DNA of 64,000 nt from Gemmatimonadaceae bacterium (GCA_045804325.1 JBJMNJ010000035.1:423-64422), one strand, 5' to 3'. Shown: positions 5,326-26,452, counted from the stretch's first letter. Notes: a model not told the origin generated them from the sequence alone. Program-made: numbers and translations.

Positions 5326-7559
5326 ACACCCGGCCACCCCTCCACCACCGCCACCCGCTGCGCCACCTGCGTCGCGAGCGCCACGCCGGAGCGCTCGTCG
5401 TCGGTGACGACGACGCAGCCCGCGCCGGCGTCGGGGTAGCCCAGGAGGACGAGGGTGCGCCCGCTGCCAGCGTCCACGTACGATAGGCGCACGGCACCGG
5501 CCCGGGTGAGAAGACGGAAGCCGAGACCGCCGCGGCGCGTCGCGCCGAACGGGTCGCCCGCGAGGCTGTCGCCCGCGGCGAGCATCGCGCGCGCGGCCTC
5601 CGGCCTCGCACGCGTTCCGCCCCGGCCGGCCGCGGCCGCGAGCGCGTCCGCCCAGAGCGCCGCGAGCGACGCCACGCTCGCGCCCGCCGTGTCGCGCGCG
5701 AAGCGTGCGGGGTCGAGCTGCCGCGCGGACGCGGCGAAGTCCCCGAGTGGCCACGGCCGTGCGGAGTCGCCGGCGGTGGCCGTCCACGCGACGCGGTGGC
5801 CGCGCACCACGCCGAGGCTCACGCGGCCCGCGCCGTACATCCGCCGCAGCCACGAGAGCTCGTCCCGGAGCCAGGCGCGGCTGGCGGCCGCGTCGAGCGG
5901 GCGCGTCACGCCGGGGACGGGCCCGTACTCCGGCTCCCACAGCATGAGGCGATGCTCGGGGTCGAGCCGAACGGCCGTCGGGGCGCCACGCGCGGGCAGC
6001 ACGAACGCCTGCACCGAGTCGGCGAGGAGCACGCGACTGCGAAGCGCGCCGCCGCGCGATGCGACGTCGACGTCGAGAGGCAGCCGGTAGGGGCGCGTGC
6101 GCTGGGTGACCTCGACGCGCGCGGCGGGGCGGCCGCCGAGCGTGGCGGCGGACCAGCGCACGTCGAGCACCGGCGCGCCGGCGCGGTCGAGCCAGTCGGC
6201 GAAGAACCTCGTGAGCTCCCGCGCGCTGTCGGGCGGGACCGCCTGGAGGAAGGCGGCGCGGAGGTCGGGGAGCGTGGCGCTGCGGCCGGCGTAGTCGCGG
6301 ACGAAGCGGCGGAGCACCGCGAAGTACGTCGAGTCGCCGACGCGGTCGCGGAGCATCTCGTAGAACCACGCGCCCTTGGAGTACGACGGGAGCGTCGCGA
6401 AGTCGTTCATGAGCGGCTCGTCCGCCCCGATGCGCCACAGGTGGAAGAAGGTGTGCGCGCTGTTGGGGACGGAGCCGTCACGCATGTACGCGCGCATGCC
6501 GGCGCGCCCGTGGCGCGCCTCCACGACGAGCGACGCGCCGTGGCTGGCCATCCCCTCGTCCATCATGTCGTCGCCCGGCGGGTCGGAGAGGACCGTGTTC
6601 GCCCACCACATGTGCGCGAGCTCGTGCGCGAAGAGCGGCACGTCGACGGTGTCGGCGTCGAGCGCGTGCTCGTGCGCGAGGAAGTATCCCTGCTCGGAGC
6701 GTCCGCCGATCCCGGGCGGCGCGATGCCGGCGGGGATGGCCGCGACGCCGAACGTGCCGAAGGGGTACGGCCCGTACGCCTTCTCGAGGACGGCGACCAT
6801 CGGCGGGACCGCCGCCGCGAACGCGCCCGCCTTGCCCGCCTGCCTCGGCATGAGATGAATGGCGACGTCGGTGGCGCCCACCCGGTGGCGGGTCACGACG
6901 TACGGCGCGGCGATGAAGCTCCACGCGAGCGGCTGCGCGCTCTCCCACCGCTCGCGCCGCACGCCGCCGCTCACCGTGCTGTCGACGAGCCGGCCGTTCG
7001 ACAGGCCGCTCCACGAGGCGGGGACCGTGAGCCGCAGCGTGCCCCGCGCGCTGATGGACGGGTCGCGCCCCTTCGTCGCGGCGAGCCACGGGTACCAGTT
7101 CCCGTACCACGATGCGAACGCCCCCTCGCGGCCGAGCGCGACGCTGCGCGCGACGCGCGGCTGCCGGGCGCGCGAGCGGAAGCGCACGACCACGGCCGCC
7201 CCGGAGTCCGCCGGCGCCGCGAGCCGCACGCGCGCGGTGTCGCCGCCGGTCGAGAGCGTGACGCTCGCGCCCGCGGCCTCCACCGACTCGAGCCGCATCC
7301 CCCCGGACGCCACGGCGAGCGCGGGACCGAGCGACCCGCCGGCGGGCGCGGTGACCGTGAGCGCGCCCGCGACGCGCACGGTCTCGCTGTCCGGCAGCGC
7401 GACGACGCCGAGCTCGATGCGCGCGAGCTTCCATCCCGAGCCGCTCGTGTCGGCCGTCGCGCTGGGCGCAACGCTCCAATGGCGCGATGGCGGGGGAGCG
7501 CCAGAGAGCGCCAGCAGGCTCGCGAGGACCGACAGCCGAGAGCCGAGAGCGCGATTCAT
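5316..7559 (-). CDS. secreted M1-family zinc metallopeptidase with an extra C-terminal domain
   Basis: Frame of ORF 5316..8219, trimmed to ATG 7559 (MNRALGSRLSVLASLLALSG, signal-like) with GGAGGAG upstream. Carries the HEXXH motif in FAHELAHMWWAN with a downstream Glu typical of gluzincin M1 peptidases. About 220 extra C-terminal residues follow. Confidence 0.8.
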   Translation of the reverse strand: MNRALGSRLSVLASLLALSGAPPPSRHWSVAPSATADTSGSGWKLARIELGVVALPDSETVRVAGALTVTAPAGGSLGPALAVASGGMRLESVEAAGASVTLSTGGDTARVRLAAPADSGAAVVVRFRSRARQPRVARSVALGREGAFASWYGNWYPWLAATKGRDPSISARGTLRLTVPASWSGLSNGRLVDSTVSGGVRRERWESAQPLAWSFIAAPYVVTRHRVGATDVAIHLMPRQAGKAGAFAAAVPPMVAVLEKAYGPYPFGTFGVAAIPAGIAPPGIGGRSEQGYFLAHEHALDADTVDVPLFAHELAHMWWANTVLSDPPGDDMMDEGMASHGASLVVEARHGRAGMRAYMRDGSVPNSAHTFFHLWRIGADEPLMNDFATLPSYSKGAWFYEMLRDRVGDSTYFAVLRRFVRDYAGRSATLPDLRAAFLQAVPPDSARELTRFFADWLDRAGAPVLDVRWSAATLGGRPAARVEVTQRTRPYRLPLDVDVASRGGALRSRVLLADSVQAFVLPARGAPTAVRLDPEHRLMLWEPEYGPVPGVTRPLDAAASRAWLRDELSWLRRMYGAGRVSLGVVRGHRVAWTATAGDSARPWPLGDFAASARQLDPARFARDTAGASVASLAALWADALAAAAGRGGTRARPEAARAMLAAGDSLAGDPFGATRRGGLGFRLLTRAGAVRLSYVDAGSGRTLVLLGYPDAGAGCVVVTDDERSGVALATQVAQRVAVVEGWPGVRP

Positions 7560-14302: not shown

Positions 14303-14647
14303 ATGAGCCCCGACCCCGCCCGCGGCGACCTCGCCCCCGGGATGCTCGAGCTCCTGATCCTCCGCACGCTCTCCGTGCAGACGATGCACGGCTACGCCAT
14401 CGCGCAGCAGATCGAGCGACTCTCCGAGGACGTCTTCCGCGTCGAGCAGGGCTCGCTCTACCCGGCGCTCGAGCGGCTCCAGCGGAAGGGCTGGGTGACC
14501 TCCGAGTGGAAGGAGACGCCCACGAAGCGGCGCGCGCGCTATTACACCATCACCCGCGCCGGCCACGAGCAGCTCGGCGAGGCGCTCACGCGCTTCGAGC
14601 GCACCACCCTCGCCATCGCCCGCGTCCTCCGCGGCGCGGGCGGCTGA
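14303..14647 (+). CDS. PadR-family transcriptional regulator
   Basis: 114-aa ORF. LELLILRTLSVQTMHGYAIAQQIERLSEDVFRVEQGSLYPALERLQRKGWV...RYYTITRAG. Confidence 0.9.
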   Translation: MSPDPARGDLAPGMLELLILRTLSVQTMHGYAIAQQIERLSEDVFRVEQGSLYPALERLQRKGWVTSEWKETPTKRRARYYTITRAGHEQLGEALTRFERTTLAIARVLRGAGG

Positions 14648-14661
14648 GCGCGGGGCGGCCC

Positions 14662-17340
14662 GTGTCCCGCCTGCTCGCCCTGCGCCACCGCCTGCGCGCC
14701 CTGCTGCGCCCCGGCGCGCACGCGCGCGAGCTCGCCGAGGAGCTCCGCTTCCACGAGGAGCTCGACGCCATGCACCGGCGTCACGCCGGCGCGAGCGCGG
14801 ACGCCGCGCGCCTCGCCGCCCGGCGCCGGCTCGGCAACGCCACCCGCATCACCGAGGAGGTCCGCGAGATGTCCGCGCGCCACCGGCTCGACGAGCTCCA
14901 GCAGGACCTGCGCTACGCCGCGCGCACGCTCCGCCGCGCCCCGGGCTTCACCGTGGGCGCCGTGCTCACCCTCGGCCTCGGGATCGGCGCGGCCGCGGCG
15001 ATGTTCACGGTGGTGGACGCGGTGCTCCTCCGCGCCCTCCCCTACGCCGACCCCGAGCGGCTCGTCGCGGTATGGACCGCCGGCACGTCGGGGGGCGAGC
15101 CGATGACCTCGTCCCCGCCCGACTTCCGCGAGCTCGCGGCCGCGCGGCGGACCTTTTCGGGCATGGCGGCTCACTACACCGTCGAGGTGAACGTCGCGGG
15201 CGGCGGGGAGCCCGAGCGCGTGAGCGGCGCGCGCGTGAGCCCCTCGCTCTTCGACGTGCTCGGCGTCGCCCCGTCGCTCGGGCGTGCCTTCGCCGAGGTG
15301 GAGGGCGACTGGGGACGGCACCGCGTCGCCGTGATCTCCGACGGCCTCTGGCGCCGCCGCTTCGGCGCCGACCCGCGAGTCATCGGCCGCACCATCACCC
15401 TCGACCGCGAGCCACACGTCGTGGTCGGCGTCGCGCCCCGCGCGCTCGCATTCCCCGCGCGGGGCCTGGACGTCTGGCTTCCGATCGCCTTCGCGCCCGG
15501 CGACCACTCGAACACGCGCGGCAACTACTTCCTGCAGATCGTCGCGCGCCTGCGCGGCGGCGCCTCGGCGGCCGGCGCCGCCGCGGAGCTCCGGCCCATC
15601 GCGCGGCGCGTGGCGGCGGAGCACGCCGACGCCGTGATGAAGGACGTCGTCGTGCGGCCGCTCCGCTCGGACGTCGTGGGAGGCGCCGCACGACCCCTCC
15701 TCGTGCTCGGCGGCGCCATCGCGCTCGTGCTGCTCGTCTCCTGCGCCAACGTCGCCGCGCTCGTGCTCGCACGCGGCTCGGCGCGCCGAGCGGAGATCGC
15801 CCTCCGCGCGGGGCTCGGCGCCAGCCGCGCGCGCATCGTCCGCCAGCTCATGACCGAGAGCCTCGTCCTCGGCGCGCTCGCCGGGGTGCTCGGCACCGCG
15901 CTCGCCGCGGCGGGGGTGCTGCTCGCCGTCCGCCACGCGCCGCCCGACCTCCCGCGCCTGCAGGAGGTTGCGGTAGGCGCGCGCACACTCACCGTGTGCG
16001 CCGCGCTCGCGCTCGCGACCACGGTCCTGTTCGGGCTCGTGCCGGCGCTCCGCCTCGCGCGCGCCGGGGTGGCCGACGCGCTGCGCGAGCGCACGCGCAC
16101 CGCGACCGGGCGCGCCGGGTACCGCGGGTACGCCGCGCTGGTCGCCGCACAGATGGCGCTGTCGGTGGTGCTCCTCGCCGGGGCCGGCCTCCTCCTGCGG
16201 AGCTTCGCGCGGGTCATGGCGGTGGACCCCGGCTTCCGCGCCGAGCGCGTGCTCTCGATGGCGGTGGCGCTCCCGGAGGGGGCGTACCCGACGGCCGAGC
16301 GCACGGCGCAGTTCCTCGACGCGGTGCTCGAGCGCGCGCGGGCGCTCCCCGGCGTGCGCGCCGCGGCGGCCACGTCGGGGTTGTCGTTGGGCGGCGGGTG
16401 GTGGGGCAAGATGCTCAGCGTGGCGGGGCGCCCTGCCCCGCGGACGATGGGCGAGGTCCCGTCCGTGGGATACCGCGTGGTGAGCCGCGACTACTTCGCG
16501 ACGCTGGGCGTCGCGCTGCGCAGTGGACGGACGTTCGGGCCCGACGACCGCCGCGGCGGCCCGGGCGTCGCCGTCATCAACGAGACGGCAGCGCGCAGGT
16601 TCTGGGGCGGCGAGAGCCCGCTCGGGAAGACGATCTGGCTCGGGCCGCCGGAGGCGATGGTCAGCGGACACGTCCCCGGCGGCTACCACTTCCCGCGCCT
16701 CGAGGTCGTCGGCGTCGTGGGCGACGAGCGCTTCTCCGCGCTCGACGAGCCGCCCGTGGCCGAGGTGTATCAGCTCTACGAGCAGGTGACGGAGACGGCC
16801 TCCGTCATGTACCTCGCCGTGCGCGCCGACGGTGACCCCGCTGCCCTCGCGGCGTCGGTGCGCGCGGCCGTCCGCGCCGTGGATCCGCTGCAGCCCGTCG
16901 CGGACGTCGCGACCATGAGCGCGCGCCTCGAGCGCGCCACGGGCGCGCGCCGCTTCACGCTCGGGTTACTCGGCGGCTTCGCCGCGCTGGCGCTCGGGCT
17001 CGCGGCCGTGGGGCTGTACGGGGTGATCGCGTACACCGTGGCGGAGCGTCGGCGCGAGCTCGCCGTGCGGCTCGCGCTGGGGGATACGGCGGCGGGGGTC
17101 GTCAGGCTCGTCGTGGGGCGCGCCATGCGTCCGGTGGTCCTCGGCGTGGCGGCGGGAGTGGCGCCGGCACTCGCGCTCGCCGGAGTCGTGCGCGCGCTGC
17201 TCTACGGCGTGTCGCCCACCGACCCCGCGGCGTTCGCCGGAGCGGTCGTCACGCTGCTCGCCGCGGCGCTCGCCGCGAGTGCGCTGCCCGCGTGGCGCGC
17301 CTCGCGCCTGGGGCTCGCGGAGACGCTGCGCGGCGAGTAG
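14662..17340 (+). CDS. ADOP-type MacB/FtsX duplicated orphan permease
   Basis: Frame of ORF 14506..17340, trimmed to GTG 14662, which is 15 nt after the PadR stop. N-terminal extension ELRFHEELDAMHRRH...RRLGNATRITEEVREM, then LRYAARTLRRAPGFTVGAVLTLGLGIGA, and two FtsX modules. Confidence 0.9.
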   Translation: MSRLLALRHRLRALLRPGAHARELAEELRFHEELDAMHRRHAGASADAARLAARRRLGNATRITEEVREMSARHRLDELQQDLRYAARTLRRAPGFTVGAVLTLGLGIGAAAAMFTVVDAVLLRALPYADPERLVAVWTAGTSGGEPMTSSPPDFRELAAARRTFSGMAAHYTVEVNVAGGGEPERVSGARVSPSLFDVLGVAPSLGRAFAEVEGDWGRHRVAVISDGLWRRRFGADPRVIGRTITLDREPHVVVGVAPRALAFPARGLDVWLPIAFAPGDHSNTRGNYFLQIVARLRGGASAAGAAAELRPIARRVAAEHADAVMKDVVVRPLRSDVVGGAARPLLVLGGAIALVLLVSCANVAALVLARGSARRAEIALRAGLGASRARIVRQLMTESLVLGALAGVLGTALAAAGVLLAVRHAPPDLPRLQEVAVGARTLTVCAALALATTVLFGLVPALRLARAGVADALRERTRTATGRAGYRGYAALVAAQMALSVVLLAGAGLLLRSFARVMAVDPGFRAERVLSMAVALPEGAYPTAERTAQFLDAVLERARALPGVRAAAATSGLSLGGGWWGKMLSVAGRPAPRTMGEVPSVGYRVVSRDYFATLGVALRSGRTFGPDDRRGGPGVAVINETAARRFWGGESPLGKTIWLGPPEAMVSGHVPGGYHFPRLEVVGVVGDERFSALDEPPVAEVYQLYEQVTETASVMYLAVRADGDPAALAASVRAAVRAVDPLQPVADVATMSARLERATGARRFTLGLLGGFAALALGLAAVGLYGVIAYTVAERRRELAVRLALGDTAAGVVRLVVGRAMRPVVLGVAAGVAPALALAGVVRALLYGVSPTDPAAFAGAVVTLLAAALAASALPAWRASRLGLAETLRGE

Positions 17341-17349
17341 CGGCCTCGC

Positions 17350-18090
17350 TCACGCCGCCGATGCCGCGGCCGTCGGCGCGGAGCCGCCGTTCTCCTCGCC
17401 GAGCACGCCGTACCCCACGACGCCCGCGCTCGCGTCGATGAGCGCGTGGATGACCATCGCGGGCAGGAGCCAGCCCGTGCCGAGCACCACGAGGCCGAGC
17501 ACGAGCGCGACGGCGCCCGCCTTCAGCGCGCCCGCGGGCCCCTGGTACGAGTGCCCGACGGCGAAGAGCACGGCCTGCGCGACGAGCGCGCCCGCGGTGC
17601 CGAGGTACGCGCTCAGGATCCAGAAGAGGAAGCCGCGGTAGAGCAGCTCCTCGCACACGCCGGCGGTGACCGAGACGGCGGTGAACCACCGGAGCTCGCT
17701 GCGCGTGTGCGGGAGGATGAACTCGACGCCCGCGAGGCGCGGCCGCAGGGCCCCCGCCTGCTCGGCGGAGAGCCGCCGGACGGCGCGCGCCTGCCGCACG
17801 GAGAGCGCGACGAGGGCGGCCGCGAGCGCGGCCCCGAGCGCGAGGCGCCACCCGCCCTGCGGCACGACGCCGAGCGCGCGCCAGGCGCGGCCCTGCCACG
17901 CCCACAGGGCGAGCGCGGCGGCGGCGGCCGTCCATTGCAGGAGCATCACCCGACGGTAGGCGTTGCGCCGCGCGTCGGGCTTCCCGGCCGCCACCGCCGC
18001 GCGGAAGCGGGGAAAGAAGACGAAGGTCTCGAACGCGGTGGCGGCGACGGCGAAGAGGAAGACGAACGCGATGTCGGCGGCGGACGGCAT
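17350..18090 (-). CDS. CPBP-family (CAAX/Abi) intramembrane glutamic protease
   Basis: 246-aa polytopic ORF with the CPBP motifs EELLYRGFLF, FAVGH and HALIDA. Confidence 0.8.
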   Translation of the reverse strand: MPSAADIAFVFLFAVAATAFETFVFFPRFRAAVAAGKPDARRNAYRRVMLLQWTAAAAALALWAWQGRAWRALGVVPQGGWRLALGAALAAALVALSVRQARAVRRLSAEQAGALRPRLAGVEFILPHTRSELRWFTAVSVTAGVCEELLYRGFLFWILSAYLGTAGALVAQAVLFAVGHSYQGPAGALKAGAVALVLGLVVLGTGWLLPAMVIHALIDASAGVVGYGVLGEENGGSAPTAAASAA

Positions 18091-18202: not shown

Positions 18203-18859
18203 ATGCCACGGAAGCCCCGCGCCGCCGGCGCGCCGCCCCTCGCGCCGAGCGTCGCCGAGCTGCGGGCGCTCGCGCACCCGCTGCGCATCCGCCTGCTCGA
18301 GCTGTTCGCCGAGGGGCCGCGCACGACGAAGCAGGTGGCGGAGCTCCTCGGCGAGCCGCCGACGCGGCTGTACCACCACATCGCCGCGCTGGAGCGCGCC
18401 GGGCTGCTGGAGCTGCGCGAGACGCGGAAGGTGCGCGGCACCACCGAGCGCTGGTACGCCGCGGTGGCGCGCGCGTACGGGTCCGGCGCCGGCGGCGAGG
18501 CGGCGGCCCTTGGCGACCGCGGCCCGGGGCGGGGCGGGCGGAAGCGCGGGCCCGCGTCGAAGGCGGCGCACGCGGTCGCCCAGACGGTCGTGGAGCAGGC
18601 GCGGCGTGAGCTCGCCGCCGTTGCGGCGCGCGGGAGCGGGGAGCGCTCGGCGGACGACGCGCCCCTCGTCGCGCGCCTCGTGGTGAACGTCCCGCCCGAG
18701 CGCATCCCCGAGCTGCGCCAGCGGATCTACGCCGCGGCGCGCGACGTCCTGCGCGAGCTCGCGCCGCACGACGAGGCCGCCGAGGGCGACGGGCGCGCGC
18801 GCTGGGCGCTCACCCTCGCGCTCGCGCCGGTCTGGCCGCGCGGGAACGCCGCGCGCTAG
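18203..18859 (+). CDS. ArsR-family winged-helix transcriptional regulator with C-terminal extension
   Basis: 218-aa ORF. LRALAHPLRIRLLELFAEGPRTTKQVAELLGEPPTRLYHHIAALERAGLLE is a typical ArsR HTH. Confidence 0.8.
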   Translation: MPRKPRAAGAPPLAPSVAELRALAHPLRIRLLELFAEGPRTTKQVAELLGEPPTRLYHHIAALERAGLLELRETRKVRGTTERWYAAVARAYGSGAGGEAAALGDRGPGRGGRKRGPASKAAHAVAQTVVEQARRELAAVAARGSGERSADDAPLVARLVVNVPPERIPELRQRIYAAARDVLRELAPHDEAAEGDGRARWALTLALAPVWPRGNAAR

Positions 18860-18877
18860 GCGCGCGCTGGGCGCGCG

Positions 18878-19060
18878 CTAGCCGCGCGCCTCCCGTCGTA
18901 CCGATCCCGGTTCGGCGTCCCCCGACGTCATCGGCGCGCCTCCGACGCGCCGCTTCCGCCGCCGGTGCCCGGAGGTCGCCGCGAGCACGCCGAGCAGCGT
19001 GAGGACGACCGACCCGACTCCGAGGATCGCCAGCAGCGCGGTCTTCAGCCCGACGTCCAT
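18878..19060 (-). CDS. 60-aa single-pass membrane peptide (hypothetical)
   Basis: ATG at 19060 is preceded by GGAGGGAG 7 nt upstream. MDVGLKTALLAILGVGSVVLTLLGVLAATSGHRRRKRR... with high GC3. Overlaps the end of the upstream ORF by 16 nt. Confidence 0.45.
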   Translation of the reverse strand: MDVGLKTALLAILGVGSVVLTLLGVLAATSGHRRRKRRVGGAPMTSGDAEPGSVRREARG

Positions 19061-19596
19061 GTCGCGCTCCCTCCGTGACGAGTCGCCGCCGGCGCGTCGA
19101 ACCAGAGCACGACGCGCGTCTCGAACTCCCGCTCCAGCGCCTGCATCATCGTGAGCAGCGCGCAGTACGTCGCCGGCACGACGTCGCGGTCCTCCGCGGA
19201 CCCGGCGAGCGTCGTGAGGACGCGATCCAGCTCGCGCACGTCGCACCACGTCGCGAGCTCCGGGCGGCCGGACCGCCGCCGCCGCTCGCGATACAGCGCG
19301 TAGCGCTCGGCCGTCGGGGCGCTGGGGTCCGGCGGCATGCCGAGCGCGCCCACCAGGTCGTCGTCGGGCGCGCCGAGGCCGAGGAAGAGCCCCGCCAGCG
19401 CGTCGTGGCGTGCGCCCTCGCGCCGCCGCGCGCGCCGCGCGTCCGACGCGCCGCCGACGGCGGGACACGCGTAGTGCCACCACGCGCCGCTGCCGGTGCG
19501 ACACTCGACGTGCGCCTCCGTCACCACCCCCGCGGCGATGCGCGTCGCGACGTGTGCGCCGGCGCGCGCGCCCTCCTGCTCGTCTCGCCAGATCAT
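19045..19596 (-). CDS. hypothetical protein, paralogue A of the ligD-adjacent unknown family
   Basis: Frame of ORF 19045..19686, trimmed to ATG 19596 (MIWRDEQEG) with high GC3. Shares AHVECRTGSGAWWHYA and PATYCALLTMMQALEREFETRVVLWF with ORF 20267..21052. Confidence 0.6.
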   Translation of the reverse strand: MIWRDEQEGARAGAHVATRIAAGVVTEAHVECRTGSGAWWHYACPAVGGASDARRARRREGARHDALAGLFLGLGAPDDDLVGALGMPPDPSAPTAERYALYRERRRRSGRPELATWCDVRELDRVLTTLAGSAEDRDVVPATYCALLTMMQALEREFETRVVLWFDAPAATRHGGSATWTSG

Positions 19597-19726
19597 CGGC
19601 GCCCTTCCCTTCTCCAGACGTGATGCGATGTGGGTCCCGGACCGCGGACGGCTGCGCGGTGAGAGGCGGCGTGGCGGACGACGCACGCACCCGCTGGCCG
19701 CCGCGGCCGGGTCCCCGTTCGTGGCG

Positions 19727-20122
19727 CTACTCGGCGTCCTCCGGATCGCGGAGGTCGCCTCGACGCCGCCGCGGCGGGAAGCCGGGCGGCCGCACGGACT
19801 TCCACGGCCGGCGCCCGCCGCGCGACACGCGCGGCGGGAACTGCAGCTCGAGCTGGGCGCGGTCGGCGGCGTCGGAGCCCGGCAGCGCGCCGAGCATGCG
19901 CGCCGACCGCCAGAACATCAGGAGGCGGATGGGCGCCCGGTGGCCGCCGAACGGCGTCCGCGCGACGGCCAGCGCCTCCTCGCGCACCTCGCGCGGGATG
20001 CGCCGCGCCTCGAGCTCGCAGAGGCGCTCGACGTTGCCGACGTCGCGCTCCTCCACCGAGGCGTGGAGCTCGGCCAGCACCGCGAGCAGCGGCGGGCGCT
20101 TCGCGCGGTCGCGGCGCGTCAC
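19727..20122 (-). CDS. hypothetical basic protein (131 aa)
   Basis: Frame of ORF 19727..20197. GTG at 20122 overlaps the stop of the upstream mini-ORF (GTGA). Very high GC3, Arg-rich C-terminus, no family recognised. Confidence 0.5.
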   Translation of the reverse strand: MTRRDRAKRPPLLAVLAELHASVEERDVGNVERLCELEARRIPREVREEALAVARTPFGGHRAPIRLLMFWRSARMLGALPGSDAADRAQLELQFPPRVSRGGRRPWKSVRPPGFPPRRRRGDLRDPEDAE

Positions 20123-20265
20123 GAGTGCGCGACCCCGTAGAGGACGAGCGCCGCGATCACCCACAGCACGACCACCAGCCAGACCGCGGTGCGCCATTCC
20201 TGCGAGGCACGGCGCGCGACGCGGCGCATGGAGTCGGTGACGGGGCGCATGCTGCTCGCTCGCAT
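20119..20265 (-). CDS. 48-aa single-pass membrane peptide (hypothetical)
   Basis: ATG at 20265 is 1 nt after the TGA of the upstream ORF. MRASSMRPVTDSMRRVARRASQEWRTAVWLVVVLWVIAALVLYGVAHS with high GC3. Confidence 0.45.
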   Translation of the reverse strand: MRASSMRPVTDSMRRVARRASQEWRTAVWLVVVLWVIAALVLYGVAHS

Positions 20266-20266
20266 G

Positions 20267-21052
20267 TCACCGCGCTGCCCGCGGCAGGTGCAGCTCCGAG
20301 CCACACCGCGGGCACCGTCCGGTGAGCGTCGCTGGCCCGTAGCGGCTGGCGCGCGCGGGCGCAGCAGGCGAGCCCGCGCGGCGCCGGCCCACGCGGACGC
20401 TCGCGCCGCAGGGGCACGAGGCGACGCCGGGGGCCGACCACGCCGCGAACGGCGCACGCGCGCCGCGCGCCTGCACTGCCGCCGGGACGACGTCCCTCAC
20501 CTCGCGCGCCGCCTCGGCGCCGTCGCCCTCGCGCCGCGACGCACCGAGCGCCAGGAGCGACAGCCGCTCGAACCAGAGGAGGACCCGCACCTCGTACGTC
20601 CCCTCGAGCTCGCGAATCATCGCGACGAGCGCGCGGTAGGTGGCGGGGGCCGGCTCGTCGTGCTCGGCGCGGAACGCCGAGAGGCAGGCGGCGAGGTCGT
20701 CGAGCGAGAGCGTCGTCGGGTACTCGTTGACGGGGTCCGTGATGCGCGCCCACGGCTCGCGCGTGCGCCACCGCTCGGCGTCCCCCGCCGCCACCCACGC
20801 GTCCGCGTCCTCCGCGCTCACCGTGCGCGGCCCCGGCGCGACGTACTCGCCGACCACGCGCAGGGTGTAGTCGTCGAGCACCGCCCAGGACACGTCGGCC
20901 GGCAGCTCCGCGCGGAACGTGCGGCCCCCTGCCTCGCCGGAGGCGATGATGCGGAAGAGCCGCGGGTCGTGCGCGAGGAACGGGCGCGCGTAGCGCCACC
21001 ACTCGCGGCCGGGCACCCGGCACTCGACGTGGGCGTGGGAGAGCCACGCCAT
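20267..21052 (-). CDS. hypothetical protein, paralogue B of the ligD-adjacent unknown family, with C-terminal zinc-ribbon-like CxC...CxxC
   Basis: Frame of ORF 20267..21070. ATG at 21052 is 4 nt after the ligD TAG. Motifs AHVECRVPGREWWRYA and PATYRALVAMIRELEGTYEVRVLLWF, with a C-terminal CPCGASV...GRCPRCGSELHLP. Confidence 0.65.
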   Translation of the reverse strand: MAWLSHAHVECRVPGREWWRYARPFLAHDPRLFRIIASGEAGGRTFRAELPADVSWAVLDDYTLRVVGEYVAPGPRTVSAEDADAWVAAGDAERWRTREPWARITDPVNEYPTTLSLDDLAACLSAFRAEHDEPAPATYRALVAMIRELEGTYEVRVLLWFERLSLLALGASRREGDGAEAAREVRDVVPAAVQARGARAPFAAWSAPGVASCPCGASVRVGRRRAGSPAAPARASRYGPATLTGRCPRCGSELHLPRAAR

Positions 21053-21056
21053 CCGG

Positions 21057-23102
21057 CTAGCGGTCACCACGGACGATCCCCTCCAGTCGGTTGCGGCGCC
21101 GCATGGCGGCCGCCCACAGGTCGCCCGCGCGCGCGAGCCGGTCGGGCACCGTCGCGACGTCGAACTCGCGCGGGTCGAGCCGCTCGTCGAGCTCGTCCCA
21201 CGCGAGCGGCGTCGATACGGTCGCGCCCGGCCGCGCGCGCACCGAGTACACGCTGGCGACGGTCTTTCCCCTGATGTTCTGCAGGTAGTCCACGTAGATG
21301 ACGCCCGCCGCGCGCTTCGCGACGCTGCGCTCGACGGTCGCCTCGCGCGGGTGCCGCAGCGCCACGTGCGTCGCGATGAGCTGCGCGAGCACGCGCGCCG
21401 CGTCGGCGGGCGTGCCCGGCTCGAGCGGGAGCACGATGTGCAGCCCGGTGGCGCCCGAGGTCTTGGGCGTTCCGTGAAGGCCGAGCGCGTCCATCGCCTC
21501 CTTCACGCGGAGTGCGACCTCCACCACGCGGCGGAACGGCGCGCGCGGCCCCGGGTCGAGGTCCACGATCGCGTAGTCCGCCGACTCGGTGTCCGGGACG
21601 CGCCCGTGCCACGGGTCCACCGAGATGGCGCCCAGCTGCACCGTGTAGAGGAGCGTGAGGAGGTCGCCGCCGACGAGCCGCGCCTCGTCGGCGCCGTCGG
21701 CGCTCCGCACGGACTCCACGCGTACGCCCGCCGGCACCCGCTCCGGCGCCCGCTGCTGGTAGAACGCCGGCGCGTCCACGCCGTTCGGGAAGCGGCGCAG
21801 GACGAGCGGGCGGTCGGCGACGGCGGGCAGGATCGCGCGCGCCACCAGCGCGTAGTAGCGCATGACGTCGCCCTTCGTCACGCCGGCGCGTCCGAAGAAG
21901 GGCTTCCCGAGGTTCGTGACGTCGAGCGTGCGGCCGGGGCCGAGCCAGAGCGTGCCCGCACCGCCCTCCATCTCGATCGCGTCGAGCTGCGCCACGACGT
22001 CCATGGGCGTGAAGCCCTCGAGCACCGAGATGCGGCGCCGCGCCCACGGGAGACGAGGCCGCGGCGGCGCCGCGGTGGACGCGACCACGCGGCGCCCGCG
22101 CGCCACGACGCGCCCGGCGCGGCCCGGCGCACTCTCGCGGCGCACCTCGCGCGGCGGCTTGTCGTCGCGCACGCCGAGGAAGACCGGCTGGCGGAGCACC
22201 GCGTCGGCGGTCCACTCGTTGAACCGCACCTCCACGACCACGCTCGGGCGCACCCAGTGCGCGCGCTCGCGCGTGCGCGGCGGGTTCGCGAAGGGCGAGG
22301 TCGCGCGCTCGAGCGGCGCGAGGCGCGCGTAGACGTCGGCCAGCGCCTGGCGCGTGAAGCCCGCGCCGACGGCGCCCGAGAAGACGAGCCGGTCCTCGTC
22401 GTCGCGCACGCCGACGAGCAGGGCTCCGATGTGCTCGCGCGAGTTGCGCGGCTCGGTGAAGCCGCCGACGACGAACTCCTGCTGCAGCTCCGCCTTCACC
22501 TTGAGCCAGGCGCCCGTGCGCTTCCCCGGCTCGTAGGCGGCGTCGAGGCGCTTGGCGATGACGCCCTCCCACGCGTGGGCGTGCGCGTGCGCGAGCGCCT
22601 CGTCGCCGCCCATGCGCAGCGACTCGGCGAGCACGAGGCCCGCGGGCGGACGCCGGAGCAGCCGCTCGAGCCGCCGCCGGCGCTCCGCGTACGGCTCGTC
22701 GACGAGGCGGTCGTCCCCCTCGAGCAGCAGGTCGAAGGCGACGAACGCCGCCGGCGCCGCCCCGGCCAGCCGCGCGGCCTCGCCGGGCGAGGCGTGGATG
22801 CGGCCCTGGAGGTCCTGGAATCGCCCGAGCGTGCCGTCGGCGCGCCGGGCGACGATCTCGCCGTCGAGCACGAGCGGCGCGCCCGCGCGCGCCGCGAGCG
22901 CGGAGAGCGCCGCGACGACCTCGGGGAACTGCGCGCCCTTGTCGTTGCCGTTGCGGGAGACGAGCGACGCCGACGCGCTCGCCGCGTAGGCGAGCACGCG
23001 CACGCCGTCGTACTTCGCCTCGAACGCCCACCCCTCGCCGGCCGGCGGCGCGGCGGCGGGGCGGGCGAGCATCGGGCTGAATCGGGCGGCGCGGCGCGTC
23101 AT
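21057..23102 (-). CDS. ligD: ATP-dependent DNA ligase LigD (ligase + polymerase/primase domains, no phosphoesterase domain seen)
   Basis: Frame of ORF 21057..24164, trimmed to ATG 23102, which overlaps the ku stop (ATGA). Adenylation motif EAKYDGVR. The C-terminal half (LWLGPGRTLDVTNLGKPFF...FPNGVD...TSGATGLHIVLPL...IYVDYLQN) matches the LigD polymerase domain. Confidence 0.9.
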   Translation of the reverse strand: MTRRAARFSPMLARPAAAPPAGEGWAFEAKYDGVRVLAYAASASASLVSRNGNDKGAQFPEVVAALSALAARAGAPLVLDGEIVARRADGTLGRFQDLQGRIHASPGEAARLAGAAPAAFVAFDLLLEGDDRLVDEPYAERRRRLERLLRRPPAGLVLAESLRMGGDEALAHAHAHAWEGVIAKRLDAAYEPGKRTGAWLKVKAELQQEFVVGGFTEPRNSREHIGALLVGVRDDEDRLVFSGAVGAGFTRQALADVYARLAPLERATSPFANPPRTRERAHWVRPSVVVEVRFNEWTADAVLRQPVFLGVRDDKPPREVRRESAPGRAGRVVARGRRVVASTAAPPRPRLPWARRRISVLEGFTPMDVVAQLDAIEMEGGAGTLWLGPGRTLDVTNLGKPFFGRAGVTKGDVMRYYALVARAILPAVADRPLVLRRFPNGVDAPAFYQQRAPERVPAGVRVESVRSADGADEARLVGGDLLTLLYTVQLGAISVDPWHGRVPDTESADYAIVDLDPGPRAPFRRVVEVALRVKEAMDALGLHGTPKTSGATGLHIVLPLEPGTPADAARVLAQLIATHVALRHPREATVERSVAKRAAGVIYVDYLQNIRGKTVASVYSVRARPGATVSTPLAWDELDERLDPREFDVATVPDRLARAGDLWAAAMRRRNRLEGIVRGDR

Positions 23103-23947
23103 GCGGTCCTCCGCTTCCTTCTCACCGTCTTGCCCGCCGCGGCCTTGGTGGCCGCGCGCGCCGCCGGCCGCCGCTTCCCTTTCGCGAGGCTCTCCTGGAG
23201 CCGCGCCAGGAGGTCCACGACGGGCGTGCTCTCCGGCTCGTCCGGCTCGTCGAGCTTGACCTTCCGGCCCTTGAGCTTCGCCTTGATGACGCGCTGGAGG
23301 TTCTCGCGGTACTCGTCCTTGTACTTCCCCGGCGTGAAGGGCTCGGCGAGGTTCGCGATGAGCTGCTCGGCCATCTGCACCTCCTGCGGCCGCACGCCCG
23401 CGCCGTCGGGGAAGCGGAGCGAGCCGACGTCCACCAGCTCGCTCGCGAAGCGCATGATCTCGAGCACCAGCGCCTCCTCGACGACGCGCACGGCCGCGAG
23501 GTGGTGCGAGTTGGAGCGCATCGTGATCTTGCCGATGCCGACCATCCCGCTGCGGCGCATCGCCTCGCGCAGGAGCGCGTACGCCTTGTCGCCGTCCTTG
23601 CCGGGGAGCAGGTAGTACGGCGCCTCGAAGAAGCGCGGGTCGATCTCCTCCGCGCGCACGAAGTCGAGGATCTCGAACGTCTTCGACGAGACGAGGGCGG
23701 CGGCCTTGAAGTCGTCGTCGTCGAGCACGACGAACTTGCCCTTCGCGTACTCGTAGCCCTTGACGATGTCCTCCCACGGGACGACGTCGCCCTCCTGCTC
23801 GCAGACGCGCTGGTACTTGATGGGCGAGTGGTCGCGCTTGTGGAGCTGGCGGAAGCTGATGCGCTCCCCGGCGCGCACGGCGGAGTGCAGCTCGACGGGA
23901 AGGTGCACGAGCCCGAACGTGAGGGATCCCTTCCAGATAGGTCGCAT
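23099..23947 (-). CDS. ku: non-homologous end-joining protein Ku
   Basis: Frame of ORF 23099..24034, trimmed to ATG 23947. MRPIWKGSLTFGLVHLPVELHSAV...ISFRQLH...PIKYQRVCE...GYEYAKGKFVVL is the canonical bacterial Ku core. Lys/Arg-rich C-terminal tail. Confidence 0.95.
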   Translation of the reverse strand: MRPIWKGSLTFGLVHLPVELHSAVRAGERISFRQLHKRDHSPIKYQRVCEQEGDVVPWEDIVKGYEYAKGKFVVLDDDDFKAAALVSSKTFEILDFVRAEEIDPRFFEAPYYLLPGKDGDKAYALLREAMRRSGMVGIGKITMRSNSHHLAAVRVVEEALVLEIMRFASELVDVGSLRFPDGAGVRPQEVQMAEQLIANLAEPFTPGKYKDEYRENLQRVIKAKLKGRKVKLDEPDEPESTPVVDLLARLQESLAKGKRRPAARAATKAAAGKTVRRKRRTA

Positions 23948-23978
23948 CGCTGGCGGCGCTCGCGGTCCCGAGTTCGTG

Positions 23979-24017
23979 TCGCGAATTCGCATCGCGAATT
24001 CGCATCGCGAATTCGCG
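23979..24017. promoter_or_regulatory. three tandem 13-bp units (tcgcgaattcgca x2, tcgcgaattcgcg), each with a GCGAATTCGC palindrome, in the ku leader/promoter
   Basis: Read directly at 23979-23991, 23992-24004 and 24005-24017, which is 32-70 nt upstream of the ku ATG. The AATT cores stand out in GC-rich DNA. Confidence 0.55.
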
Positions 24018-24035
24018 GAGACGGATGGCGCCACC

Positions 24036-24298
24036 GCCTAACGCATGGAAAGGGCCATTGTGGATATCCACACGGAGTCCACATTCGTGATGTGCAGAAC
24101 CGCCGACTTTTCCACAAGCCGTTGCCCTACAAGGGCATAGGCCCCTCGCCATTGTGGTCGGCATCGTACAGCCTAACGTCAGCCGGCGGCCGGGTGCGGG
24201 CCGGGTGGACTCCGGCGGGATGCGCCCGGGATGCCGATCGGCGGTGGCCGACCTCCCCCGTTAGGCGCCCGGGCGCGCGAGATCGATCGACGTTAGGC
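24036..24298. repeat. clustered 8-mer GCCTAACG / CGTTAGGC (2 forward, 2 reverse copies)
   Basis: GCCTAACG at 24036 and 24171; CGTTAGGC at 24259 and 24291. A fifth copy (GCCTAACG) lies at 24859. Confidence 0.5.
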
Positions 24299-24458
24299 AG
24301 GGCCGGTCTCTCGCGCGGACGCGTCACCGAATTCGTGGTCACGGCGCGACGCCCTCGGGCGCGCTCGCATTTATGCACAGAGGTTTTCAACGCGGCGAAG
24401 CGGCGCGGCGACAAGAACTTCCGGCGTTTTCCACGGGTTTCCACAGGGCTTATCCACA
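24059..24458. promoter_or_regulatory. DnaA-box cluster (oriC-like or DnaA-regulated region)
   Basis: TGTGGATATCCACA palindrome at 24059-24072 (two inverted aTATCCACA boxes). TTTTCCACA at 24108-24116. TTATgCACA at 24371-24379. TTTTCCACg at 24427-24435. gTTTCCACA at 24437-24445. Perfect TTATCCACA at 24450-24458. A roughly 41% GC patch follows at 24471-24504. Confidence 0.6.
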
Positions 24459-24586
24459 AGCGGCACAACGACTTAGACCTATTTTGCCTCTTGTCTTTCT
24501 CGAGCGTCGATCCTAGCATTCTGCCCGCGCCGCGCTCCGCTCCTGGGCGCCGCGCTCCCGCCCCCTTCGACCTCCCCGGAACCACG

Positions 24587-24910
24587 ATGCAGCTGCTCCC
24601 CTGCGCCCCCCCGGTCGGCCCCCTCGAGCGTGCTCCCATGACCGCGCTGCGCCCCGACGGCGAGGGCGAGTGGGTCGGGTTCTGGGCGGGGGACCACGCC
24701 TACTACGCGCGGCACACGCGCGAGGACGGCGGGGCGGAGTGGTTCGAGGTGCGCGCGGAGGAGGGCGGCGCCGGGCCTCGGCCCGTGCGGCCGGCGACGC
24801 CGCGCTCCGTCGGGGTGCTGCCGCCGCGCCGCGCGCTGAGCGCCGTCGGGCGCCTGGGGCCTAACGCGAGCTTCGCGCTCGTGTGGAGCTCGCGCCGCCG
24901 ACGAGCGTGA
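24587..24910 (+). CDS. hypothetical small protein (start 24587 or 24638)
   Basis: This is the tail of ORF-track frame 23501..24910. From MTALRPDGEGEWVGFWAGDHAYYARHTREDGGAEWFEVRAEE onward the third codon positions are almost all G/C. No family recognised. Confidence 0.45.
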   Translation: MQLLPCAPPVGPLERAPMTALRPDGEGEWVGFWAGDHAYYARHTREDGGAEWFEVRAEEGGAGPRPVRPATPRSVGVLPPRRALSAVGRLGPNASFALVWSSRRRRA

Positions 24911-24937: not shown

Positions 24938-25792
24938 CTAGGCCGTCAGTCCCGGCAGGTTGAGCTGCTGCGTGTGTCCCTGGGAGACGCGCAGCGCCGC
25001 CAGGTGCACCCACGAGAACAGTACGTCGAGGCGCAGGTCGCCCGACGTCGCTTCCTTCGCGAGGCCGAAGTGGATCGAGAGCGCGCGGCCGATGTTCGCG
25101 GGACGCTGGTGGACGAAGAACATCAACAGATCCGTGGCGGCGTCCACCGCGTGGTAGAGCGCGAACAGGTAGAATCGCATCCGCTCCGCGTCGCGCTGCG
25201 CGAGGGCGAGCAGCAGCGCGGCCTCGCGCGAGGCGCGCTCCTCGCGCACCCGCGCGATGATCGCCGTGGCGCGCGGCAGCTCCGCGCCCCCCTCGCGACG
25301 CAGCAGCTCCGTCCAGGCGTCGGCGAGGTGCTCGAGCAGCGCGACGTCCCACGGGCGCGCGTCGCGGTCGTCGGGCGCGGGGTGCAGCCGCTGCCACCGC
25401 TCCCACTGCGGCGCGAGCGAGCCGACCTCCGCGAGCGCCGCGAGCTGGAGCTTCCGGATGGCCAGGGCGCGCGGCTCGTCCGGCGCGGGCAGCGCCGAGT
25501 AGAGGAGGAAGGCGCGGGACGCGGCGAGCTCCACCTGCTCCTGCGCCGTCGCGAGCTCGTCGGGATCGGCGAGCGCGAGGTGGGAGGCGAGGTCGCGCCC
25601 CGCGAGGTCGTACGCGGCCGCGAGCTGCACCGCCGCCTCGCACTCCGCGGCGTCGAGCGGCGAGACCGGCTCGGCGGCCTCGCGCGGGTCGTAGGCCGCG
25701 ACGGCCGCGGCACGCGCCAAGAGCGCCTGCGCCGGCCCGAAGGCGGCCACCGCCCAGTGGCGGTCGACGTGCCGAGCGCTGTGCAGCTGCAC
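24938..25792 (-). CDS. hypothetical alpha-helical protein (start uncertain)
   Basis: Frame of ORF 24938..26344. High GC3 begins near 25900. The first plausible canonical start is GTG 25792 (VQLHSARH...). C-terminus ...RFYLFALYHAVDAATDLLMFFVHQRPANIGRALSIHFGLAKE. No family recognised. Confidence 0.45.
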   Translation of the reverse strand: MQLHSARHVDRHWAVAAFGPAQALLARAAAVAAYDPREAAEPVSPLDAAECEAAVQLAAAYDLAGRDLASHLALADPDELATAQEQVELAASRAFLLYSALPAPDEPRALAIRKLQLAALAEVGSLAPQWERWQRLHPAPDDRDARPWDVALLEHLADAWTELLRREGGAELPRATAIIARVREERASREAALLLALAQRDAERMRFYLFALYHAVDAATDLLMFFVHQRPANIGRALSIHFGLAKEATSGDLRLDVLFSWVHLAALRVSQGHTQQLNLPGLTA

Positions 25793-25966
25793 GGAGGGGG
25801 AAGTGGGGACGCCACGACGGCGCCCCGGGTCCGCAGTGCCCGAGTACGCCCACCAGATCGGCCGCCGAGGGCGTCGCGCGGCGGCCAGCTCCAGCCTGAA
25901 GCTCCCCGTCTGACGCCCAGCTCGATCGTACGGTAACGAACGCGTCCATTCCGCGAGAATCGACCG

Positions 25967-26452
25967 ATGTGCCTGGAACCCGTCTCCTCGCCCCGCCTGG
26001 CCATGCTCTCGCGACTCGCCGCCGCCGAGGCGGCGTCGCACGACTTCTCTCAGCCTTCCTCTTCCGCATCGATGACCGTGCTCCCCTCCAGCCCCCTCGC
26101 GCGCGACGTCGCCGCCTGCCCCGACTGCCACGCGCGGGTGACCGCCGCGGGCGTCAGCTCGCTCTGCCAGCGCCACGAGGCCGTCTGGATGTTCGAGCAG
26201 GCGGTGGGCGCCTCGGCCGAGCCGCTCGCGGGGGACGTCGGTCCTCTGCTCCAGCAGGTGCTCACGACCGGGGACCGCGGCCGCGACCTGCTCGACGCGT
26301 TCCGCCGGCAGGCGAGCGCCCTCAACCTCGTGTGGGAGGCGCACGTACGGGGCGCGGCCCGACTTCCCGAGGAGGTGGCGGAGCTCGTGCGGTCGGCCCG
26401 CGAGCGGGCGCCGGACCTCCTGGCCGGTCGGCCAGTGCCGCGGAGCGCCTGA
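25967..26452 (+). CDS. hypothetical protein with CxxC...CxxH motif (start 25967 or ATG 26072)
   Basis: 161-aa ORF with high GC3 from about 26072 (MTVLPSSPLARDVAACPDCHARVTAAGVSSLCQRHEAVW...). No family recognised. Confidence 0.45.
   Translation: MCLEPVSSPRLAMLSRLAAAEAASHDFSQPSSSASMTVLPSSPLARDVAACPDCHARVTAAGVSSLCQRHEAVWMFEQAVGASAEPLAGDVGPLLQQVLTTGDRGRDLLDAFRRQASALNLVWEAHVRGAARLPEEVAELVRSARERAPDLLAGRPVPRSA

Follow-up and report, generated by a model that had tools for sequence, protein, structure and literature searches.

Two conserved genes in the ku-ligD operons of Gemmatimonadaceae as candidate accessory components of end joining

Non-homologous end joining (NHEJ) in bacteria is described, in the parts of the literature available to us, as Ku plus LigD. 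In a stretch of 64,000 nucleotides (nt) from a Gemmatimonadaceae bacterium (GCA_045804325.1 JBJMNJ010000035.1:423-64422; hereafter the window, whose numbering is used for all its positions), a ku-ligD operon on the minus strand continues into five further open reading frames (ORFs), and the locus raises the question of whether these ORFs belong to end joining. Two protein families were distinguished among the five products: X, comprising a 261-amino-acid (aa) protein (X1) and a 183-aa protein (X2), and the partner, a 131-aa protein. Sequence comparison and predicted structures suggest, with a probability of about 0.5, that X and the partner are lineage-specific accessory components of Gemmatimonadaceae NHEJ; the details of how they would act are less certain. 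No description of X or partner genes was found in the same parts of the literature.

Operon structure and the X and partner proteins

The ORFs were re-derived and their junctions were read directly on the minus strand. Seven co-directional ORFs were reproduced between 18878 and 23947, with the following features:

23099-23947, minus strand: ku, 282 aa (Pfam PF02735, E=2e-48; NCBI 'Ku protein' MFL5579051)
21057-23102, minus strand: ligD, 681 aa, with ligase and primase-polymerase domains (Pfam DNA_ligase_A_M, DNA_ligase_A_C and LigD_Prim-Pol)
20267-21052, minus strand: X1 gene, 261-aa ORF with an ATG start
20543-21070, minus strand: X1 globular domain (HVECR...LWFER), with its start at ATG 21052 or GTG 21070
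20267-20542, minus strand: X1 C-terminal tail, an Arg-rich linker and a CPC...CPRC zinc-ribbon-like motif, as read from the sequence
20119-20265, minus strand: mini48, a 48-aa ORF with one hydrophobic segment, of uncertain status as a gene (GC content at third codon positions, GC3, 0.92)
19727-20122, minus strand: partner, 131 aa, GTG start, motif LPxEVRxEAL...RAP, with a four-helix core and a charged disordered tail
19597-19726, minus strand: intergenic spacer between partner and X2, 130 nt
19045-19596, minus strand: X2, 183 aa, a paralogue of X1
18878-19060, minus strand: mini60, 60 aa, with a single hydrophobic segment, preceded by a GGAGGGAG Shine-Dalgarno sequence (annotated by NCBI as ACJ8AO_01630)

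The ku stop codon and the ligD start codon overlapped by 4 nt (ATGA), so that the Ku homologue directly adjoins an ATP-dependent ligase with a primase-polymerase (PrimPol) domain. Four nucleotides lay between the ligD TAG and the X1 ATG at 21052, and one between the X1 TGA and the mini48 ATG at 20265. The junction of mini48 and the partner was a GTGA overlap, the partner and X2 were separated by 130 nt, and X2 and mini60 overlapped by 16 nt, with GGAGGGAG standing 5' of the mini60 ATG. The GC3 of all seven ORFs was 0.89-0.97, on a background GC content of 77%. A preliminary description of the locus had given the same ORFs, junctions and coding-type GC3, and had read co-transcription with the NHEJ genes from the tight packing. 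Simple scans of 18500-24900 detected no sigma-70-like promoter and no intrinsic terminator, and thus none that would part ligD from the ORFs behind it.

The start of X1 was also considered. Gene callers use GTG 21070, which gives a protein of 267 or 266 aa and an overlap of 14 nt with ligD. A protein identical to the 267-aa form has been recorded, and the 266-aa form is found in the NCBI record of the metagenome-assembled genome (MAG) (MFL5579049.1 / ACJ8AO_01650). The 261-aa form of the window was absent from the records, although a 261-aa member of the cluster, P0309, is recorded. The longer start is plausible because homologues have about 10 residues ahead of the HxxVECR block, and on this alignment GTG 21070 appears at least as likely as ATG 21052. 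In the NCBI annotation of this Gemmatimonadaceae MAG, all five ORFs other than ku and ligD are called 'hypothetical protein', beside 'DNA ligase D' and 'Ku protein', on a contig of 65.9 kb.

The window was compared with the canonical Ku plus LigD operon of Mycobacterium, Pseudomonas and Bacillus. In both, ku and ligD are adjacent and overlapping, and the Ku beta-barrel, the ATP-dependent ligase and PrimPol are present. However, the window adds two embedded conserved genes, a duplicated module and a LigD that lacks the phosphoesterase (PE) domain. Pfam gave no PF13298 or LigD_N match for this LigD, and tblastn with a PE domain found no PE-like sequence in the whole 64-kb window.

The paralogy of the 261-aa and 183-aa proteins, proposed earlier from two common blocks, was borne out by BLASTP (E=7e-9 over about 160 residues), and both blocks were real. 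The alignments showed that X2 lacks the conserved His6 and about 37 central residues relative to X1. The X2 orthologue in locus L006 (loci and proteins are numbered with L and P) was 70% identical, with a ratio of nonsynonymous to synonymous substitution (dN/dS) of 0.38, and was likewise without H6 and some 37 residues of the central part. P0009 of L018 has a comparable deletion of independent origin. The CPC...CPRC tail described for the longer paralogue was also present, its paired cysteines being C217-x-C219 and C247-x-x-C250. It matched a rubrerythrin-like NCBIfam model weakly (E=0.11), and a separate 111-aa CxC...CxxC protein beside the second X paralogue of L001 was a further weak match (E=0.03), which is only suggestive of a fusion or fission relation between the two.

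None of the five proteins had a meaningful match in Pfam, NCBIfam, PHROGs or PADLOC, the last giving no match at E up to 1, in keeping with the first reading of these ORFs, in which no family had been recognised. Pfam and NCBIfam scans of 57 X-family members, canonical ones included, also gave nothing, and no well-known family unrelated to DNA metabolism claimed X or the partner. A word-indexed search with the 261-aa protein retrieved only two relatives. An exhaustive profile search of 1.84 billion representatives, with a query built from X1, X2, P0001 and P0002, retrieved 87 relatives of X in two groups. The close clade (P0002-P0010 and P0014) had HVECR...WW and PATYxAL...LW(F/L)E in common, and an invariant polar set of its own: H, E, C, R, D, S, D, R and E. 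A profile search placed 161 proteins in the partner family, the window copy included, with the core motif LPxEVRxEAL......PxxSxRAP...L; the named members were all from Gemmatimonadaceae. The dN/dS values were 0.3-0.4 for X1, X2 and mini60 and 0.6-0.7 for the partner, the latter from few sites. From these values and the confident predicted folds given below, X and the partner are real, constrained proteins.

Linkage of X and the partner to NHEJ genes

Gene neighbourhoods were surveyed by contig look-ups, a GTDB scan, a metagenome scan and a tblastn map of all loci. A first GTDB scan with narrow patterns found nothing, and a scan with an alignment of the clade only found four Gemmatimonadaceae or Gemmatimonas MAGs. 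More than 20 other contigs, of which at least about 10 are distinct, had X and partner genes next to NHEJ genes (ku, ligase, primase-polymerase) or interposed among them, in four different gene orders; the named contigs were all from Gemmatimonadaceae. Close homologues of X and the partner tracked the ku, ligase and primase-polymerase genes in all contigs long enough to judge, with one exception. The arrangements were as follows (Lig, ligase; Pol, primase-polymerase; mini, short hydrophobic ORF):

ku-ligD(Lig-Pol)-X-mini-partner-X2-mini: the window; its 98%-identical relatives L002/L003 span ligD to partner only
ku-ligD-X-partner-mini, with a convergent X2-Zn-ribbon-181 aa group: L001
ku-ligD(PE-Lig)-Pol-X-partner: complete in L010, L015, L016, L019-L022 and L025; partial in L017, L023, L024, L026 and L027
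Lig-Pol-X-123 aa: P0006, two contigs
Pol-X-partner-Lig: L018
Pol-X-Lig, with ku-partner on the opposite strand (convergent): L011
Lig-partner-X: L007
partner-X, with no NHEJ gene in a 1.9-kb contig: L008/L009

The X proteins of these loci were 35-60% identical. Overlaps of start and stop codons were frequent at the X-Pol, X-ligase and X-partner junctions (for example, 8 nt at Pol/X and 4 nt at X/partner). Translation of the neighbouring genes showed the small partner protein next to X at the loci generally; in L011 the pair was split. The X clade and the partner family were confined to Gemmatimonadaceae and always occurred together. Hence, for the 261/183-aa and 131-aa families, the gene-neighbourhood census was positive, the gene order being rearranged and the adjacency kept. 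The preliminary description had treated all five ORFs as one set and had missed this pairing; X and the 131-aa protein proved to be a constant pair, and the mini-ORFs were not constant.

Adjacency to NHEJ genes survived at least four rearrangements, and in L011 X and the partner are separated, yet each still stands beside an NHEJ gene. Because adjacency outlasts rearrangement, even with X and the partner apart, the comparison of loci gives the strongest reason to see the tie of X and the partner to NHEJ as functional, and not merely as inherited synteny. The same arrangements bear on another explanation, that X and the partner are a phage-derived two-gene cassette (toxin-antitoxin-like, anti-phage or selfish in some other way) which landed in the NHEJ locus of an ancestral member of Gemmatimonadaceae, is inherited with the locus and acts outside end joining. 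The layout of overlapping genes for about 200 and about 100 aa does resemble defence or toxin-antitoxin pairs, both the window and L001 have a duplicate of the module, and the pair stands alone in L008/L009. However, passive hitch-hiking is hard to square with the rearranged loci, in which X is flanked by Pol and Lig and the partner follows ku. The distribution has the look of vertical inheritance in one family rather than of mobility, and PADLOC matched none of the five proteins. This explanation also draws on the abundance of the X ancestor family in phages and prophages, and it is weakened by the lack of partner homologues beside the phage copies; on balance we consider it unlikely.

The relation of X to the PE domain was also investigated. 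X resembles the PE domain of LigD, or a stand-alone PE, in size (about 160-190 aa) and in position at an NHEJ locus. However, X as a diverged PE domain was rejected: there was no PF13298 match, PE structures in the Protein Data Bank (PDB) were not matched, and X coexists with PE. Most loci have X together with a LigD that carries the PE domain. The two loci whose LigD lacks it, the window and L001, each carry two X paralogues, a pattern that is made up of these two examples only.

Relation of X to phage family phrog_10141 and predicted structures

The larger group of X relatives consisted of proteins of about 160-180 aa with the pattern MGCDIHxYIE...RDY..LAGVR..PRGIP...PDWH..SWL...RxVFWFDN, which end exactly there. 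This group is phrog_10141, a PHROG of unknown function, as 43 of the 57 aligned sequences matched it; it has no Pfam or NCBIfam model. At least 1541 proteins of this type were found by profile search, and every named one is called hypothetical. At least 400 loci were found in IMG/VR, including contigs of jumbo-phage size and one contig labelled GVMAG, and cultured phage genomes gave only six weak matches. The profile built from X retrieved dozens of canonical members (E=1e-8 to 1e-4), and tblastn reached E=1e-8; hmmscan of X1 and X2 against PHROGs gave no match to the phrog_10141 model. By these profile comparisons, X is most simply placed as a divergent branch of the phrog_10141, or MGCDIH...FWFDN, phage family, a descent that the preliminary description had missed. 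Both have the same order of secondary-structure elements and are homologous over the whole domain. Unlike phrog_10141, X has a basic or zinc-ribbon tail of 30-95 aa and an obligate partner gene, and it is chromosomal and linked to NHEJ. The phage members lie among miscellaneous early genes and have no partner gene: a hidden Markov model search of 85 viral or other loci with canonical members gave no partner match.

The contexts of the canonical members were varied. The remote canonical members L004/L005 stood among amino-acid metabolism genes, and at two prophage or phage loci canonical members lay near a YqaJ exonuclease or a UvrD/DnaB/RecJ region. A recombination role drawn from this phage context was dropped, as a census of 135 immediate neighbours contained no recurrent family.

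The residues that changed in X were analyzed next to those of the parent family. The canonical members have a near-invariant, enzyme-like set: G2, C3, D4, H6, E10, R28, Y30, R40, D108, H110, E119, R156, D162 and N163. The X clade retains H6, E10, W18, P51, P107, W114, E119, R156, W160 and D/E162, and has replaced G2, D4, R28, Y30, R40, D108, H110 and N163. Of the N-terminal motif MGCDIHxxxE only H6 and E10 are left, with G2, C3 and D4 replaced in all clade members. PDWH has lost D108 and H110, and in place of the FWFDN terminus X has LWF(E/D) or LWLE, followed by an extension of 10-95 aa. The tail of the majority clade has a strongly basic cluster, RPRRPRKxRR, at its end; that of the window is the Arg-rich linker with CPC...CPRC. 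Residue loss of this pattern is what a pseudo-enzyme or a re-tooled site typically shows. It suggests that the ancestral chemistry may have been lost in X and that nucleic-acid or protein binding was gained.

A re-tooled site would fit a different explanation, in which X is an active end-processing enzyme with an altered metal site (H6, H8, E10, D/E162 and others), a nuclease or phosphoesterase that cleans ends for LigD and perhaps offsets the missing PE domain. Enzyme-like invariant D, H, E, R, D, H, D and N mark the canonical family; H6, E10, E119, R156 and D/E162 are still present in the X clade, together with its clade-specific invariant polar residues, and both loci with a PE-less LigD have two X paralogues. 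However, X has other residues at seven near-invariant positions of the parent family, X2 lacks H6 and 37 core residues, and the coexistence of X with PE-bearing LigD means that it is no simple substitute for PE. The predicted fold of X had no likeness to any hydrolase. An enzyme of this kind is therefore, in our judgement, quite unlikely.

We analyzed the predicted structures of both proteins. The AlphaFold2 model of X1, from an alignment of 116 sequences, had a predicted local distance difference test (pLDDT) score above 90 over residues 1-165, with the element order beta-hairpin, helix, helix, strand, helix, two strands, two helices and C-terminal strand. The tail had low pLDDT, with short strands at both Cys pairs. 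The partner model consisted of four helices (pLDDT above 90 at about residues 11-78), followed by a disordered charged tail. No transmembrane segment was predicted in X or the partner. Foldseek searches of the PDB gave no neighbour for the partner and none for X1 (best E=0.8), PP2C and methyltransferase matches of X1 being rejected at template-modelling (TM) scores of about 0.1. Sequence searches of the PDB, with the profile and with a canonical member, gave nothing significant, and the best match, a YqgF-type resolvase, was rejected (E=0.29). The sole Foldseek match of X1 in BFVD was an uncharacterised Caudovirales protein, A0A6J5M5E5 (E=1.5e-7, TM scores 0.51/0.62). An alignment dominated by canonical members gave a confident model of X1, and the sole structural match was a phage protein; by both results X has the fold of the phrog_10141 family.

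On the accessory-component reading, X and the partner would be co-transcribed with ku and ligD from a conserved operator or promoter region 5' of ku, with translation coupled through the overlapping or abutting stop and start codons. X would be a compact alpha/beta domain descended from the phrog_10141 family, which lost seven near-invariant residues, six of them polar or aromatic and G2 the non-polar one, and gained a basic C-terminal tail. It and the four-helix partner might together make up a largely non-catalytic adaptor, with the tail serving to anchor X. Such an adaptor could bind DNA ends and/or Ku-LigD and modulate the synapsis, protection or processing of ends. XRCC4, XLF and PAXX are small non-enzymatic eukaryotic NHEJ factors that assist Ku and ligase at ends. 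The analogy to X and the partner is functional only, PDB searches having given no likeness in sequence or fold.

Several points weigh against this reading. The functional evidence is guilt by association within one bacterial family, and some of the synteny could be shared ancestry. On the near-identical contigs L008/L009, neither the 0.7 kb upstream of partner-X nor the 0.4 kb downstream contains an NHEJ gene. PDB searches found no sequence or structure likeness of X or the partner to any DNA-binding or DNA-processing protein. With the invariant polar set of its clade, X may have remained an enzyme rather than become an adaptor. Nothing in the ancestry of X points to NHEJ: among the 135 immediate neighbours of the wider phage family, on 68 viral contigs, there was no association with Ku or ligase and no recurrent Pfam family. 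Finally, the conserved 130-nt spacer may give X2 its own promoter.

Tentatively, then, bacterial NHEJ may not always be a two-protein system, Gemmatimonadaceae having possibly gained a pseudo-enzyme, X, from a domesticated phage family and a four-helix partner, both acting at ends bound by Ku and LigD. The comparisons suggest that in Gemmatimonadaceae, and in this family alone, the NHEJ operon has two conserved extra components of unknown fold class, one of which was domesticated from a large unstudied phage family. If this is true, X and the partner would be the first dedicated accessory factors specific to a lineage, with a bearing on the protection, bridging and processing of ends in slow-growing, desiccation-exposed soil bacteria. 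A phage gene would have been domesticated into a host repair operon, and study of the pair would give a first functional handle on a phage family with at least 1,500 members. The analysis also points to two protein families whose folds are predicted with confidence but for which there is neither a Pfam model nor a structural relative that has been solved.

Small ORFs, flanking regions and neighbouring genes

The mini-ORFs were also compared between loci. The preliminary description had included a mini transmembrane peptide in a duplicated module, but mini48 and mini60 share no similarity and were seen in near relatives only. Mini48 occurred only in the 98%-identical contigs L002/L003, with three substitutions, too few for a test of selection. 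A positional homologue of mini60 was present in L006, and the dN/dS of its 38 hydrophobic N-terminal codons was 0.37, next to 0.38 for X2 beside it; mini60 is probably a real gene of the window's sub-lineage. In L001, an unrelated 53-aa hydrophobic ORF follows the partner gene. No mini-ORF was found in the other loci, and the majority-clade operon stops right after the partner. Thus, conservation of the small ORFs extended to L006 for mini60 and to L002/L003 for mini48, and both were absent from the main clade. By this distribution the mini-peptides are not part of the conserved core, and X2 with mini60 in the window is a duplication of the module within the sub-lineage.

The distribution also bears on the suggestion of a membrane-linked stress or dormancy module, in which mini transmembrane peptides tether X and the partner and a stress role is merely co-expressed with double-strand-break repair. 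The two or three short hydrophobic ORFs of the sub-lineage (mini48, mini60 and the 53-aa ORF of L001) speak for it, as does the conservation of the transmembrane part of mini60 in L006. However, these ORFs are mutually unrelated and are missing from most loci, where X and the partner persist, and short hydrophobic ORFs rich in Ala, Leu and Val arise readily at 77% GC. X and the partner themselves have no predicted transmembrane segment, and we regard such a module as highly improbable. Of the original proposal, the NHEJ linkage of X and the partner was borne out, co-transcription is probable from the packing, and the membrane part was not supported.

The region 5' of ku was also analyzed. In the window it contains the following feature:

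24058-24116, minus strand: inverted-repeat region 5' of ku, TGTGGAAAA-N9-TTCTGCACA, then ATGTGGA, then TGTGGATATCCACA

The arrangement GTGGAnAA-N9-TnTCCACA-N5-7-ATGTG(G/C)A, together with TGTnnATA, was found 5' of ku in eight loci (the window, L001, L010, L015, L016, L019, L022 and L025). It lay about 100-170 nt 5' of ku, within an intergenic region of about 500 nt with lower GC content (0.64-0.69). Several of the TGTGGA-type copies resemble DnaA boxes (TGTGGATAA). An oriC was considered for this low-GC stretch with its DnaA-box-like 9-mers and was rejected because the same arrangement recurs upstream of ku in eight different loci, so that the region is probably the operator or promoter of the operon. 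Directly 5' of the ku start, at about 23978-24016, there were also three tandem copies of GCGAATTCGCGAT, with the palindromic core TCGCGAATTCGCGA. This triplet was specific to the window and was absent from the other loci aligned upstream of ku.

The spacer between the partner and X2 was compared with that of L006. Its first 95 nt or so (window 19632-19726, L006 246-340) were about 93% identical, a conservation above that of the coding DNA on its flanks (70% aa identity; proportion of synonymous differences, pS, 0.38), and the stretch occurred once in the window. It had no significant RNA fold (z=-0.7) and no Rfam match. It may serve X2-mini60 as a regulatory element or an internal promoter.

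The genes around the operon were also recorded. Upstream, a 468-aa uncharacterised protein is encoded at 24938-26344 (minus strand), co-directional with ku, and its C-terminal 290 aa match a protein of about 300 aa at Gemmatimonadaceae loci. Divergent from ku, at about 24593-24910 (plus strand), is a gene for a protein of about 105-137 aa with the motif WxGFWGxDxxYYAR, which is conserved across loci. Neither protein had a Pfam match. In the soil contig L001, an FtsZ/tubulin-domain gene (5811-6851, minus strand) lies about 300 nt 5' of ku on the opposite strand, beyond a small divergent ORF.

In the majority clade, a 70-aa gene (MTTRLEKTIKRELELDGRLYTVQMGPEGVKVTEKGHRKGQELSW...) is convergent to the end of the NHEJ operon (L010 5586-5825, L016 11098-11301 and L019 7324-7536, all on the minus strand, and others). 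It was 88-97% identical between loci, far above X or the partner, and had no Pfam match; in L001 it is located elsewhere, and it was not found in the window. Downstream of the module, the window has a convergent ArsR/HTH_20 regulator (18203-18859, plus strand), a CAAX/Rce1-like membrane protease (17350-18090, minus strand) and a MacB-like permease (14506-17340, plus strand). The L006 permease lies immediately next to the mini60 homologue, so that the regulator and protease were either inserted in the lineage of the window or deleted in L006.

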